Below, in pieces: positions 8,850 to 62,978 of a DNA stretch of 64,000 bases. Origin of the DNA: Dehalococcoidia bacterium (lineage in GTDB: Bacteria > Chloroflexota > Dehalococcoidia > Plut-88900); contig CBDFLQ010000007.1 of the NCBI GenBank assembly GCA_965249275.1, positions 512,001 through 576,000 on the forward strand, in the 5' to 3' direction. The notes beneath the pieces were generated by a model. It was not told where the DNA came from. It made no database searches and saw nothing but the letters and a program-made list of their open reading frames with translations. Positions within the stretch are counted from its first letter, which is position 1. Every line of letters starts with the position of its first letter. The translations under genes and the position numbers were made by a program.

Positions 8850-9097
8850 ATACCCTCTCCCTGTCCCCTCGTCTCCCATTTGTCCTGTCATTCCGAGGCT
8901 CCGCGAGAAATCTGGAGGGCGTCCCCCCATCCGTCATTCCGGCCGCCGAGAGCCGGAATACATTCCTGGAGGTGGGGCCGCTCACCCTGAGCACCGTCGA
9001 AGGGTCGAGCGAGGGGTGGCCCCGCATCGTCAAATCGTAGTGGTCGTCCCCAGACGGTCACACCACCCCCTAACCTCCGATTTGCCCCTGTCATTCC
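8850..9097. repeat. Composite REP-like palindrome cluster (BIME-like)
   Basis: cctgtcattccgaggctccgcgagaaatct (8884), ccgtcattccggc..gccggaat (8931), ccgctcaccctgagcaccgtcgaaggg (8978); related units recur at 10154 and 10930-11125. Confidence 0.7.
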
Positions 9098-10153
9098 TGT
9101 AAGTGTTAGGTAATTCGTTGACAGATTGGTATAAGAAGCCAACACCAATCTGGAGGCGAAAATGCGAGACAACAGCAAGGACCTCACCCTTGAAAGGAAC
9201 TACATTCAAAAGTGGCGGTTCCTCATCCATGAGTATCAACTGGTCAAGGCCAGGAAGCATCCCCGCTTCCGCTTTGCCCAGGACTTCTATGCCTTCCACG
9301 GCACTACATGTCAGACCTTTGCCAAGTACTACAACCGGTTCCTCCTCTCCCCCTCCGACGAAGCCTTCTTCCCCCGTAAACGGGGCCCCAATTGGAAGAG
9401 CCGCCGTACCCTGCCCTACATCGAGCAGAAGGTTCTCACCGAACGGCTCAACGGTACCAATCGCTACGAGATATATGCCATACTCAAGCCCATCCTCAAA
9501 CAGCACACTCCTAAGCCCTCTACCATCTACGCCATCACCAGACGCCACGGTGTTAATAGGCTCACTAAGCCGATGCAGCAGTCCAAGCGCAAGATCATCA
9601 AGACCCGGGCAGGGGAGCTGGGGCACCTGGACAGCCACCACCTCAGCCGGGACCTCCTGGTAGACTCCAAGCGCCGTTACTATCTGGTCGCCCTCATTGA
9701 CGCCTGCACCCGCTTGGCCTGGGCCGAAGTGGTCGGAGACATCAAGAGCCTCTCTGTGATGTTCGCAACCCTGAAATCCATCAACTTCCTTAACGCGGAG
9801 TACGGCATCCAATTCGAGGCTATCCTCACCGACAATGGCCCTGAGATGGCCTCGCCCAGGAACATCGAGGGCCACCCCATGGAACGGATGCTCAATGAGC
9901 TGGGCATCAAGCACCGCTACACACGCCCTTATAGGCCCCAGACCAACGGGAAGATAGAGCGGTTCTGGAGAACCCTGAACGAGGACCTGCTGGAGGGGAC
10001 CACCTTCGAGTCGGTGGCAGAACTGCGGGACGAACTGCAGCAATATCTGCTCTACTACAATACCCAGAGACCCCACCAGGCAATGGACGGAAAGACCCCT
10101 TTGGAGACCCTTCAATCTCTCTAATTCTGTCAACGAATCATCTGACATCTACA
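9098..10153 (+). mobile_element. IS481-family insertion sequence (1056 bp)
   Basis: Ends 5'-TGT...ACA-3'; TIRs tgtaagtgttaggtaattcgttgacaga / tgtagatgtcagatgattcgttgacaga (rc); 5-bp target duplication attcc (9093-9097, 10154-10158). Confidence 0.92.
9162..10124 (+). CDS. IS481-family DDE transposase (integrase core)
   Basis: GELGHLD, IDACTRLAW, TDNGPE, TRPYRPQTNGKIERFWRTL, YYNTQRPHQAMDGKTP. Confidence 0.95.
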   Translation: MRDNSKDLTLERNYIQKWRFLIHEYQLVKARKHPRFRFAQDFYAFHGTTCQTFAKYYNRFLLSPSDEAFFPRKRGPNWKSRRTLPYIEQKVLTERLNGTNRYEIYAILKPILKQHTPKPSTIYAITRRHGVNRLTKPMQQSKRKIIKTRAGELGHLDSHHLSRDLLVDSKRRYYLVALIDACTRLAWAEVVGDIKSLSVMFATLKSINFLNAEYGIQFEAILTDNGPEMASPRNIEGHPMERMLNELGIKHRYTRPYRPQTNGKIERFWRTLNEDLLEGTTFESVAELRDELQQYLLYYNTQRPHQAMDGKTPLETLQSL

Positions 10154-10224
10154 ATTCCGAGGCTCCGCGAGGAATCTGGGGCGGGCGTCCAGTCCCCCTC
10201 TCCCCACTTTGTGACACCAACCCC

Positions 10225-10254
10225 TTGACCAAACTGGAACGCCTGTACTATCCT
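10225..10254 (+). promoter_or_regulatory. Sigma70 promoter of ncRNA copy 1, with an overlapping LexA-like box
   Basis: TTGACC-N18-TATCCT; GAAC-gcct-GTAC lies in the spacer; the same arrangement is conserved in copy 2. Confidence 0.6.
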
Positions 10255-10259
10255 TCTCC

Positions 10260-10840
10260 ACGTCTGGCCAGTCACCCACCCTAAACCCAAGGAGGAACCA
10301 AAACCCAGGGGGAACCCCAGCCCCGGCCCCCGAGGACTCAACGTCCCAGCCTATCCCGCTAGAGCGGTCCACACCGCTCCTCGGCTCAAGCGAAAGCCGC
10401 CATCTCCTCACCTAAAGGCCCCGGCTCACCCTTCCCCCACCACCCAGGCGATGGAAGGTCCATAGACTATACCCGGCACGTCCATCAAAGGACCCCTGCC
10501 GATTCAACGCTTCCCGTCATCGGATGCGTTTACACCGGCCTATTGCATGCCGGTTTGCCGGATCGGTCAACCGACCCCCGGATTAGCAGGGCACTCGTGT
10601 CCTTGTTTGTCCCGCCGTCTCCATCATCCGTCTACCCGACTGATGCACAGAGACGCCGGTCTGAAAGTCCGCCTCAGGTGGTATCTTCCCCGTCAGCGGT
10701 CCGGTCATGTGCCGCTGCCGGAGGGATCGGCCCCACACAACCTTGACCACAGCCGACAACATGTGGGGATAAGCCAGACCGGTGCCGACAGCTCGGCCAC
10801 AACCCCCGGCCTGGATTCTAGTCTCGGACCTTCCATCGCC
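10260..10840 (+). ncRNA. Large structured non-coding RNA of unrecognised class, copy 1 (~580 nt)
   Basis: 15-bp closing helix 10447-10461/10826-10840, many internal hairpins, compensatory changes versus the copy at 44185-44767, no reading frame conserved between copies. Confidence 0.7.
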
Positions 10841-10924
10841 AACTCCCCCCCACCCACACAAACCAAAACCGAGGTTTCCCATCCACAACTGAATAATTCC
10901 CCTACCCACTGCATGAGCCCCTTG

Positions 10925-11250
10925 CGCATCCGTCATCGCCGAGAAATCGGGCGCACGAAGTACGGCCTTTCTACTCCTGGGGGTGGGGCATTCCGCTCAC
11001 CCTGTCACAGATCCGATAAGGCGGGAGCCGAGTCGAAGGGTCTCAATAGCGGAATGGGCGGGGTGTCCCGGCCCCCCGCCCCCGTTGCCCCTGTCATCCC
11101 GAGGCTCCACGAGGGATCTGGGGGGCGGCGTCCTCTCCCTTTTCCTTTCATGGGCCGTAGCTACGCTGACGTATGAGAGGCCCAGCGCCGTAGGCTCGCT
11201 GAGAAGGGTCTAAGACTCGCCGAGGAGGATGAGGGTGTTACCCCTGCCAC
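10925..11250. repeat. Composite REP-like palindrome cluster
   Basis: ccgctcaccctg...gagccgagtcgaaggg (10994-11040), cctgtcatcccgaggctccacgagggatct (11090), gccgtaggctcgc / ctcgccgaggagg units shared with 8850-9097 and 815-846. Confidence 0.65.
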
Positions 11251-43481: not shown

Positions 43482-43967
43482 CTATTCTTCCTCTTCTTCC
43501 GGGGGCAGCTTATGCAACCTGTCCATGCTCTCCAGGAGGTCGGTATAAAGAGAGCCATGGATGTGTCCGACCTCATGCTCCAGGGCCTGGGCGAGCAGGT
43601 CCGTTGCCTTGATCCTCACCTCTTTCCCGTCAAGACCCTGCCCCTTCGCCAGGACAGTTTCCGCCCTCTTGATATCCCCCCTGTAGCCCGGAATGCTCAG
43701 GCAGCCCTCGCTTACGTCACGTTCACCGGTCTTCTTCACGATCTCCGGGTTGATAAGCGTGATAACGGGCTCATCCGGCACCTCAATGACGATGACTCTT
43801 AGGGAAACACCCACTTGTGGAGCTGCAATGCCTACGCCGTTGTACTCATGCATACTTTCAAGCATGTTCTCCGCCAGCTTCTTGATATACGCGTCTATGG
43901 CGCGGACACGTTTGGCCCTCTGGCGGAGTATCGGGTCGGGGGTGACTCTAAGCGGGAGTACGGCCAA
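43482..43967 (-). CDS. def: Peptide deformylase
   Basis: GVGIAAPQVG, EGCLSIPG, EHEVGH. Confidence 0.95.
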   Translation of the reverse strand: MAVLPLRVTPDPILRQRAKRVRAIDAYIKKLAENMLESMHEYNGVGIAAPQVGVSLRVIVIEVPDEPVITLINPEIVKKTGERDVSEGCLSIPGYRGDIKRAETVLAKGQGLDGKEVRIKATDLLAQALEHEVGHIHGSLYTDLLESMDRLHKLPPEEEEE

Positions 43968-44184
43968 TGGGAGTCTCTACGGCGTAACGAAATATCAAGT
44001 TTGATTCAGGCACCGGCCCATTCTATGAAATGGCCTTAGACCTGTAAAGGTCGTGTACTCGTTCGGTAGATTAGTGACACACCGGAGTTTCATTCAGTCC
44101 TCCTGAGGCGGACCCGCCCAAGGCGGATGTTCCATCTTCGATTGTGGGGTTTCGGTTTCCGTTCTGTCTGTTAGGTTTTGGGAA

Positions 44185-44767
44185 GGCGATGAAAGGTCCG
44201 TGACTAGGATCCAGGCCGGAGTTTGTTGCCGAGCCGTCAGCGCCGGGCTGGCTTATCCCCACATGTTCTCGGCTGTGGTCAGGGTTGTGTGGGGCCGATC
44301 CTTCCGGCAGCGGCACTTGACCGGACCGCTGACGGGGAACATGCCGCCTGAGGCGGACTTTCAGAACCGGCGTCCCGGTGCATCGGTCGTAGAGACGGAT
44401 GGCGGGGACGGCGGGACAAACAAGGCACGAGGGCCTTGCTAGACCGGGGGTCGGTTGACCTACCCGGGAAACCGGCGCGCAATGGGCCGGAGTAAACGCA
44501 TCCGGTAATGGGAAGCGTTGAATCGGCAGGGGCGTCGTAGGACGGGGCCTGCCGCGTATAGTCTGTGGACCTTCCATCGCCTGGGCGCTGGGGAAGGGAT
44601 AGCCGGGGCCTTTGTATGAGGAGATGGCGGCGTTTGCTTGAGCCGTGGGGCGGCATGGGCCGCCCTTTGGGATGGGCTTAGACGTTGAGTCCTCGGGGCC
44701 GGGGCTGGTGTTCCCCCTGGGTTGTGTGTTCCTCCTTTGGGTTTAGGGTGAGTGGCTGGCCAGCCGG
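44185..44767 (-). ncRNA. Large structured non-coding RNA of unrecognised class, copy 2 (~580 nt)
   Basis: Reverse-complement homologue of 10260-10840; closing helix 44567-44581/44185-44199 with one G-U pair on the minus strand. Confidence 0.7.
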
Positions 44768-44772
44768 GGGTG

Positions 44773-44802
44773 AATATAGTACATGTGTGCAAGTCTGGTC
44801 AA
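44773..44802 (-). promoter_or_regulatory. Sigma70 promoter of ncRNA copy 2, with an overlapping LexA-like box
   Basis: TTGACC-N18-TATATT on the minus strand; GCAC-acat-GTAC in the spacer. Confidence 0.55.
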
Positions 44803-44840
44803 GGGGTTCGTGTCACTTTTGGGAGGGCAAGAGGCTCATG

Positions 44841-62791: not shown

Positions 62792-62868
62792 GGTGGGCGT
62801 AGCCTAGCGGTTAAGGCACCAGGTTGTGGCCCTGGAGATCGAGGGTTCGAATCCCTTCGCTCACCCCA
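62792..62868 (+). tRNA. tRNA-His(GTG)
   Basis: Cloverleaf with G-1, anticodon loop TT-GTG-GC, GTTCGAATC T-loop, encoded CCA. Confidence 0.95.
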
Positions 62869-62902
62869 TGTCCTTTTAAAACTTCACCCGGCGGAACACT
62901 TT

Positions 62903-62978
62903 GCGCCTGTAGCTCAGCGGATAGAGCATCGGTCTTCGGAACCGAGGGTCGGGGGTTCGAATCCCTTCAGGCGCACCA
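62903..62978 (+). tRNA. tRNA-Arg(TCG)
   Basis: gcgcctg/caggcgc acceptor stem, anticodon stem tcggt/accga with loop CT-TCG-GA, CCA end. Confidence 0.93.

Follow-up and report, generated by a model that had tools for sequence, protein, structure and literature searches.

The 64,000-nucleotide (nt) window analysed here, that is, the whole stretch taken from a Dehalococcoidia metagenome-assembled genome (MAG; assembly G000, 2.9 Mb in seven contigs, 87% complete), contains two copies of a large structured RNA element, one on each strand. Copy 1 occupies 10211-10896 (+) and copy 2 occupies 44054-44816 (-), the borders of the latter being drawn from comparison with relatives. The two are homologous over about 630 nt (10215-10845 (+) against 44185-44812 (-)), with 85% identity over query positions 1-626 and a mean column identity of 86% including flanks, and the homology starts at the promoter (GTGACAC, TTGACC, TACTAT). 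A preliminary description of this DNA had recognised the homologous pair, assigned it to a Chloroflexota host and proposed a stand-alone large non-coding RNA (ncRNA). The pair and the host were borne out, the host belonging to a Dehalococcoidia MAG lineage. The number of copies was not: besides these two, the genome carries many more members of the same family.

Copy 1 is a class-1 member of what we term type A. Its promoter (10211-10254 (+)) is sigma-70-like and consists of the upstream motif GTGACAC (10211-10217), a -35 box TTGACC (10225-10230) and a -10-like TACTAT/TATCCT (10246-10254); a promoter scan chose 10225-10254, and the same block precedes all 54 type A copies. The sequence AAGGAGG at 10289-10295 (+) is complementary to the 3' end of the 16S rRNA (GGATCACCTCCTTTCT). 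As previously proposed, it lacks a following start codon and is kept: in all 80 aligned copies each of its positions is invariant or at least 90% conserved. A 5' domain of about 165 nt (10289-10446 (+)) follows, with the long-range pairings GGGGAA/UUCCCC and GAGGA/UCCUC and a hypervariable hairpin at 10362-10379; our covariance model R1 matches 10289-10461. The closing stem, with its 5' strand GGCGATGGAAGGTCC at 10447-10461 (+) and its 3' strand GGACCTTCCATCGCC at 10826-10840 (+), surrounds the class-1 variable domain (10462-10825 (+)), which has a multi-branched fold and covaries across classes 1, 1b and 4 and type B. The A/C-rich tail (10841-10896 (+)) ends with ACAACTGAATAA at 10885-10896; copy 1 has the short 3' end.

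Copy 2 carries the same parts on the minus strand: GTGACAC at 44816-44810, the -35 box at 44802-44797, AAGGAGG at 44737-44731 and the closing stem at 44581-44567/44199-44185, followed by the tail, two 22-nt hairpin modules and a long 3' module that ends with GAGTACA at 44054. A co-oriented gene of 161 amino acids (aa; 43482-43967 (-)) lies 87 nt downstream, and from its N-terminal sequence we take its product to be peptide-deformylase-like. All of the helices listed in the preliminary description are present in the sequence. In the alignment of the two, the hairpin GAGCGGT/ACCGCTC of copy 1 is replaced by GGGCGGC/GCCGCCC in copy 2 and the helix CGTCTC/GAGACG by CGTCCC/GGGACG, the latter a U-A to C-G change that is private to copy 1 among 24 class-1 copies. 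The 15-bp closing helix and the GGGGAA/TTCCCC and GAGGA/TCCTC pairings of the 5' domain were likewise confirmed.

Type A copies, counted as carriers of the 5' module, number 54 in this genome, and the nhmmer profile and model R1 identify the same 54. Matches to the promoter profile that are joined to a different 5' region define 13 related copies, termed type B. Full-length copies of class 1 number 13, at 80-86% identity, and about 40 further loci share only the first ~245 nt. All type A elements follow one order: the promoter, a 5' segment of about 30 nt with a short palindrome, AAGGAGG, the domain of about 165 nt, GCGATGGAAG, an inner domain of 350-530 nt, CTTCCATCGC and an A/C-rich tail that often ends in ACAACTGAATAA, for a total of 0.6-0.9 kb. 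Clustering of the inner domains of 53 loci gave at least seven mutually unrelated sequence classes (17, 11, 9, 4, 3, 3 and 2 members, plus four singletons), and the window element is a member of the largest. The closing stem is present in nearly all copies, and the complementary sequences that extend it inwards differ between classes on both strands (GTCC/GGAC, ACGC/GCGT and A(A)GCCC/GGGCCT). The RNA that had been likened to the stand-alone OLE, ROOL and GOLLD RNAs is instead one class of a modular family with about 67 copies per genome.

Two further modules are optional. The 22-nt hairpin unit GGAACATCCGCCTCTGGAGGA can be inserted, singly or as two or three tandem copies, into the tail, the 5' domain or type B leaders. 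It pairs UCCGCC with GGAGGA and is found in the tails of about 20 elements, inside the 5' domain at G000 C6:42019, C6:148170 and C7:805226, and in the type B leader at C5:477198. The 3' module GGTGTGTCACTAAyCTACCGAACGAGTACA is present in about 24 elements, and 5 nt beyond it lies the -35 box of a second promoter. Arrays of CAATCAAA-type motifs were also observed at L027 (G000 C5:168000-168200), at L070:2500-2560 and, in minus-strand reading, at G000 C5:498200-498310. One such array region ends with ACAACTGAATAA and the 3' module as the elements do, and a further element type may exist.

The structure of the elements was examined in alignments with 500 shuffles and slid registers as controls. 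Alignment A4 of the 5' domain holds 80 distinct copies from nine genomes, out of 91 distinct 5' domains in total; the 11 outside it are the most divergent or have long insertions of the 22-nt module. In its consensus fold 89.7% of cells are paired, and 69 cells show double changes against 37.6 +/- 8.4 in shuffled alignments, none of which reaches 69. The covariation score is 0.085, against 0.062 for shuffled and 0.026-0.043 for slid alignments. Examples are the pair 24-173, which is G-C in 37 copies, A-U in 28 and G-U in 9, and the pair 35-147, which is C-G in 31 and G-C in 23. The hairpin that follows CCCATCCC occurs in 56 distinct versions with about 10 stem sequences, and its folding z-score is below -1.5 in 39 of the 56.

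For the inner domain, 30 sequences from classes 1, 1b and 4 and from type B were aligned at 53% identity. The consensus has 85 pairs with 85.5% pairing, and 25 pairs are changed on both sides (for example 305-337, G-C in 17 and C-G in 12, and 483-557, G-C in 15 and C-G in 12). Double-change cells number 147 against 68.3 +/- 6.8 after shuffling (0 of 500 shuffles reach 147), with a covariation score of 0.190 against 0.116 for shuffled and 0.045-0.070 for slid alignments. Compensatory changes are thus beyond the controls by cells and by score, not by pair count, and the covariation expected from larger alignments is found in this form. The structure is also specific to one strand. The interval 10258-10850 folds with z = -6.6 on the plus strand and -3.9 on its complement, in agreement with the strand assigned earlier, and a survey of minimum free energies in 17 of 66 elements, with 12 shuffles each, gave a mean z of -3.6 for sense and -0.8 for antisense, sense being lower in 16 of the 17. 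The class-1 alignment A2 contains 24 copies at 82% identity; three copies of this genome (C7:235825, C6:787293 and C5:287077) are absent from it and present in alignment A7.

Known RNA families do not account for these structures. A scan of the whole window with Rfam 15, the check that the preliminary description had called for, returned only two tRNAs at the gathering score, and relaxing the threshold over 10100-11000 to E values of up to 10 added only two chance-level matches. Nothing besides two weak matches at E up to 1 came from the 13 type B loci. The elements match none of the Rfam 15 families, among them OLE, ROOL, GOLLD, HEARO, RNase P, tmRNA, SRP, 6S, group I/II introns, T-box and riboswitches, at the gathering score.

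Type A elements are non-coding. We found no conserved reading frame among them, and stop codons are spread over the three frames (171, 183 and 190 in 53 copies). The two window copies share no open reading frame (ORF), as had been claimed. Within class 1, the frame that begins at the ATG inside GCGATGG has 15 stops in 13 copies, including the window copy at 44577-44071 (-), against 43 and 36 in the other frames, and it is fully open from AAGGAGG on in six of the 13. This stop-poor frame has neither a fitting start codon nor protein conservation. Type A classes other than class 1 have stops in all frames.

Type B copies have a true 5' stem-loop, then AAGGAG, 5 nt and ATG, and share with type A the closing stem, the tail and an inner domain homologous to that of class 1. 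An example is the locus at G000 C6:946440-947700, one of the 13 (L023-L035). The frame from the ATG is open for 216-409 codons in 13 of 13 copies. Across 720 nt of ten similar copies it holds no stop, against 41 and 28 stops (14 and 8 of them private) in the other frames, so the openness of the frame is under selection. The expected marks of a protein gene are nevertheless missing. Substitutions are flat by codon position (3387/3461/3325), the ratio of nonsynonymous to synonymous substitution rates (dN/dS) is 0.6-1.0 in eight pairs, and the codon-usage score is under the gene threshold for all 13 copies. The ORF has no Pfam match, and AlphaFold2, run with a 59-sequence alignment, returned a mean predicted local distance difference test score (pLDDT) of 50.4 and a predicted template modelling score (pTM) of 0.13, without secondary structure. 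At least 503 predicted proteins in public catalogues match type B ORFs at E up to 0.001, and among the 120 homologues listed none has a name or a Pfam domain. The open frames of type B and class 1 differ in the region where the two are homologous. A conserved protein frame had been named in the preliminary description as something that would speak against an RNA; the type B frame is indeed kept open, but it lacks conservation at the amino-acid level and is not the frame of class 1. Neither codon-position bias, nor a low dN/dS, nor a foldable product or known family was thus found, and in our reading the type B copies are leaders that are, or can be, translated and are not genes for proteins. 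In one type B copy (G000 C5:168400-168560, in L027), about seven tandem 18-nt GGGCCATCGTGCCC-like hairpin units replace the single hairpin, in frame with the ORF.

The locus at which an element lies between priA and def could be compared with three other species. The element is 89.1, 90.7 and 86.3% identical to its orthologues, while the third codon positions of the flanking genes are 82-89, 78-85 and 56-67% identical for the same three species, and no codon periodicity was seen inside the element between the orthologues. Because the identity of the element exceeds that of the flanking third-codon positions without codon periodicity, we conclude that at this locus it is under purifying selection as non-coding sequence. 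Paralogues are 70-90% identical, and orthologues are more alike than paralogues.

Copies also come and go. Among 39 loci from relatives, both flanks could be assigned to a single position of this genome for 17; an element is there in 12 of these and missing in five (four places). At the priA locus of one species (G003), about 270 nt of other sequence replaces the element. Given that presence and absence differ at orthologous sites, copies have been gained or lost within the genus. Neither a clean empty site nor a target duplication was found, both cases examined being replaced sequence.

Model R1 finds 23-69 copies in each of eight genomes of the same Dehalococcoidia genus. Outside the genus, three genomes from other genera of the family gave no match, and neither did 136 further class genomes, which represent 105 other genera (five of 141 class genomes match, all in the genus), these negatives being drawn from samples of genomes and not proof of absence. 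A scan for the stem-pair pattern in 185,579 genomes, one per species, found real holders only among closed chromosomes of MAGs labelled 'Dehalococcoidia bacterium'. All other pattern matches, most of them in unrelated phyla, were dismissed as chance, as they lack the stem extension and about 17 or more are expected. In the explanation that we favour, the elements spread in the past, upstream of many unrelated genes, and are now kept there by selection.

Genes around 66 elements were taken from our own crude codon-usage calls. The next gene downstream is co-oriented in 53 of the 66, usually at a distance of 40-200 nt, and the upstream gene is in the opposite orientation in 43. The 53 co-oriented genes are mostly unrelated (42 singletons), with an amidohydrolase family recurring in six of them; judged by N-terminal motifs, they presumably include aminoacyl-tRNA synthetases, UvrA, GyrB, Def, Lgt and oxidoreductases. 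Among these 53, no RNA class was seen to go with genes of a single function, as would a riboswitch or T-box. Between the closing stem and the gene, terminator-like sites are present in two of 53 cases, compared with 61 of 186 convergent intergenic controls. The placement upstream of co-oriented, functionally unrelated genes, the scarcity of terminators and the differences in presence between species fit a leader cassette of mobile origin, acting in cis or processed, better than the ribozyme or scaffold gene proposed earlier.

Contigs of the element family are also present in a public library that carries the label of a sponge metatranscriptome. In a single RNA run, assessed from its contigs, depth was found in 11 of 30 bins, ten of them contiguous in copy 2 (44156-44695) and one at 43670-43723; gaps on the flanks, in the tail and in the first ~120 nt of that run are unusable as evidence. 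In the DNA run, the many copies of the family make the depth over the element 20-50 times greater.

The organism's own 16S rRNA offers a comparison for the closing stem. A stem of about 29 bp, in which UGGAAGG and ACAACUGAAUA both occur, closes around it, and a strong terminator follows. UGGAAGG, in the 5' strand of this stem (ACAACUGAAUAGUGGAAGGAAGCC), is common to the closing stem of the elements, and ACAACUGAAUA is common to their tails. Of the 51 occurrences of the tail motif in the genome, 34 are at elements; a scrambled control is found five times. Since these motifs are common to both, they suggest that the closing stem is a processing site of the 16S-stem kind. The two differ in that the motifs of the elements stand on opposite sides of the domain, the tail motif has no identified partner and the enclosed RNA is not rRNA; a long stem around a large folded RNA is the shared feature. 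An Rfam scan of the 16S locus and of two tail-motif loci gave 16S rRNA alone. We had considered ACAACTGAATA as a boxA antitermination signal and dropped this once the motif proved to form one side of the processing stem around the 16S rRNA. The gene for the 16S rRNA is isolated at G000 C7:727250-729110 (L214:1400-3270), with no 23S rRNA gene within 1.5 kb. Among the relevant nucleases, RNase J (571 bits) and RNase III (C7:427888-428274) are present in the genome and RNase E/G was not found in it.

The reading that we favour, and to which we give roughly even credence, is that the element is a lineage-specific, once-mobile cassette of a promoter and a structured leader that stabilises the downstream mRNA and is perhaps cleaved from it. 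The element promoter would make a long untranslated leader that runs into the downstream gene. Exposed AAGGAGG and the 5' fold may, much as a STAB-SD stabiliser does (SD, Shine-Dalgarno), shield the transcript from attack by RNase J, a 5'-exonuclease. The long closing stem could be a processing site of the RNase III type, like the 16S stem of this organism, and cutting there would free the folded domain from the mRNA.

Several observations weigh against this reading. Transcription start, strand, 3' end, read-through, stabilisation and cleavage are inferred: the contigs of the RNA run are strandless and, for a multicopy family, indistinguishable from DNA carry-over or paralogues. As counted by pairs, double changes show no excess in the 5' domain (4 pairs against 4.4 shuffled), the inner domain has 25 such pairs against 22.0 shuffled, a number reached by 62 of 500 shuffles, and within class 1 alone (24 copies) only 5 of 130 predicted pairs have double changes. 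In the fold of class 1 only, AAGGAGG is paired with CCUUC, so its single-strandedness is not certain. The selection test covers one orthologous locus. Thirteen of the 66 elements, copy 1 among them, face an oppositely oriented gene. In about 24 elements the -35 box of the second promoter follows the long 3' module (a strict promoter pattern was found in 11 of 53), and the downstream gene may therefore not need the promoter of the element. Finally, a leader does not explain the open frame of type B or, to a lesser degree, that of class 1.

Some of the same facts would suit a selfish, non-autonomous mobile element, that is, a large repeat derived from an insertion sequence (IS) or resembling a miniature inverted-repeat transposable element (MITE), which carries a promoter, is tolerated by the host and folds as a by-product or for its mobility. 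We regard this as unlikely. In its favour are the 54 + 13 copies here and 23-69 per related genome, their confinement to one genus, their absence from five (four places) of the 17 mapped loci and the priA locus of one species, where ~270 nt of other sequence stand in place of the element. Judged by eye, 18 of 28 positions agree between the long 3' module and the inverted end of the IS in the window (9098-10153), the 320-aa transposase gene adjoins five elements directly although it has only 14 paralogues, and other small repeats crowd the same intergenic regions. Yet the search for paired terminal inverted repeats and for a target duplication yielded neither, the 3' module lacks an inverted counterpart on the 5' side, and the only inverted match between the ends is the 7-8-nt GTGACAC/GTGTCAC. 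The two 'empty site' comparisons show replaced sequence and not clean excision. The paralogues are old (70-90%), whereas orthologues are closer and better conserved than synonymous sites; moreover, the structure is specific to the promoter-driven strand and the next gene is co-oriented in 53 of 66 cases. RVT_1 was not found in six of the nine genus genomes (this one and five relatives), and retro-mobility is unlikely because the reverse transcriptase is missing from these six. A family of stand-alone, trans-acting ncRNA genes (ribozyme, scaffold or component of a ribonucleoprotein), each copy making a stable RNA, is in our view rather improbable. Each copy does have its own consensus promoter and a large, multi-branched, conserved fold, the universal closing stem could delimit a discrete mature RNA, and the RNA-library contigs on the inner domain point weakly in this direction. 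A search of this 87%-complete genome did not detect the RNA-binding domain of Rho, probably owing to an assembly gap; it is present in all eight other genomes of the genus, and the C-rich tail could thus end transcription without a hairpin. On the other hand, 67 copies with at least seven unrelated inner domains are hard to fit to one catalytic or scaffold function, placement is strongly biased to 40-200 nt upstream of co-oriented genes, intrinsic terminators are nearly absent (2 of 53), and Rfam holds no ribozyme or known large RNA family that matches. A bolder scheme, which we put forward tentatively and also think unlikely, keeps the leader and adds a function in trans: each genome would hold 60-100 transcription units built from modular RNA cassettes with a common promoter, 5' module and processing stem, from which at least seven kinds of ~400-nt domains, cut from the leaders of housekeeping mRNAs, act in trans as stable RNAs, translation through the fold in type B switching between use of the mRNA and release of the RNA. 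By analogy, such a system might be regarded as a bacterial counterpart of the small RNAs embedded in host genes of eukaryotes.

Two other explanations carry little weight beside the leader cassette. That the family is protein-coding, with type B as intact genes and type A as decayed pseudogenes, is very improbable. It would account for the AAGGAG-5 nt-ATG arrangement and the open frame of 216-409 codons in 13 of 13 type B copies, for the 0 against 41 and 28 stops in ten of them, for the at least 503 catalogue proteins that match at E up to 0.001 and for the class-1 ATG-GAA frame with 15 stops against 43 and 36. It is contradicted by the flat codon-position counts and dN/dS of 0.6-1.0, by the lack of a Pfam match and of any name or Pfam domain among the 120 homologues listed, by codon-usage scores below threshold in all 13 type B copies and by a prediction without secondary structure. 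The open frames of type B and class 1 differ, and the other type A classes are stopped in all frames. This explanation was rejected for type A and is weakened for type B. An invertible DNA segment, with GCGATGGAAG and CTTCCATCGC as the recombination sites of an invertase at many loci, would be suggested by perfect 10-15-bp inverted repeats around a 350-530-bp segment at about 62 loci. In the assembled genome, however, each inner-domain class keeps a single orientation towards the 5' module, and no cluster is common to the sets of the two orientations. The promoter-driven strand is in every case the C-rich one, and G-U pairs and sense-specific folding energy point to RNA. We rejected the inverton, which we find scarcely credible.

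Large structured RNAs in bacterial genomes are thought to be few, and each is normally a single gene. The nearest known kinds to the present family are large single-copy ncRNAs, small transcribed intergenic repeats and reused promoters, SD-type stabilisers and rRNA processing stems. OLE, ROOL and GOLLD RNAs occur in one or few copies per genome, each with a single conserved architecture. The elements are like them in size (0.6-0.8 kb), in their multi-branched conserved fold, in being non-coding and in having a function unknown from sequence; they differ in being present in 54 + 13 copies, in their at least seven interchangeable inner domains, in lying upstream of genes and in failing to match the Rfam models of those RNAs. 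HEARO and the omega-RNA of IscB are large structured RNAs of mobile elements that reach tens of copies in some genomes, with or without an adjoining ORF. The elements are likewise large, structured, present in tens of copies and found with and without an ORF, but no nuclease, transposase or reverse-transcriptase gene is attached to them, the type B ORF has no fold or family, Rfam gives no match and the copies are old and positionally conserved. Correia, ERIC and REP/BIME repeats measure 30-300 nt and are mostly simple hairpins with inverted ends. They share with the elements, as we read them, co-transcription with genes, structure, restriction to a lineage and perhaps recognition by RNase III. 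In contrast to these repeats, the elements have 600-900 nt, two domains, covariation in tens of pairs and purifying selection, and they lack paired inverted ends. STAB-SD of Bacillus, in the cry3A leader, is an SD-like 5' stabiliser that prolongs the half-life of mRNA by obstructing the 5'-exonuclease, in an RNase J setting. Here too, a perfect SD-like sequence lies near the 5' end of a long leader with the start codon far away, in a host with RNase J and no detected RNase E, and AAGGAGG is complementary to the 16S 3' end without a start codon at translational distance. Unlike STAB-SD, it is found at 54 loci, each time ahead of a conserved structure of more than 500 nt. As for reused or 'mobile' promoters, near-identical promoter-bearing regions are reported upstream of unrelated genes (PMC3575422), an arrangement that the elements share.

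We found no description of the element family in the literature searched, one preprint of which was covered by a term search. A family that unites this size and copy number with modular inner domains and purifying selection is not described there. About 48 kb, or ~1.7% of the 2.9-Mb genome, consists of 67 paralogous folded RNA elements. If they are leaders, they would add a new and pervasive level of control over gene expression to an uncultured lineage of Dehalococcoidia; release of the inner domains would make them an entirely new family of stable RNAs. The many natural variants of large RNA folds, with covariation built in, are suited to structure determination, and the family is a clear case for the study of how promoter-plus-leader cassettes spread and become fixed. 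For annotation, it is relevant that gene callers have turned type B copies into at least 503 'hypothetical proteins'.

The remaining features of the window lie outside the elements. Directly upstream of copy 1 is an insertion sequence (9098-10153 (+)) with 28-nt inverted ends, which are 82% complementary, and a transposase ORF of 320 aa at 9162-10124. Its flanks read cATTCC/IS/ATTCCg, which resembles a duplication of 5 bp within one copy of a small repeat. This repeat (GTCATTCCGAGGCTCCGCGAGGAATCTGGGGCGG..., with the hairpin ATTCC...GGAAT) is seen in the window at 8886-8930 and 10150-10200, in many element flanks and recurrently in intergenic DNA. A REP-like palindromic repeat, GTAGGGGCGACCGGCCGGTCGCCC..GGGGTGGGGC, is also found in many intergenic regions (G000 C7:461500-461560 and C6:415600-415660, among others). 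Finally, two tRNA genes lie at 62793-62975 of the window.

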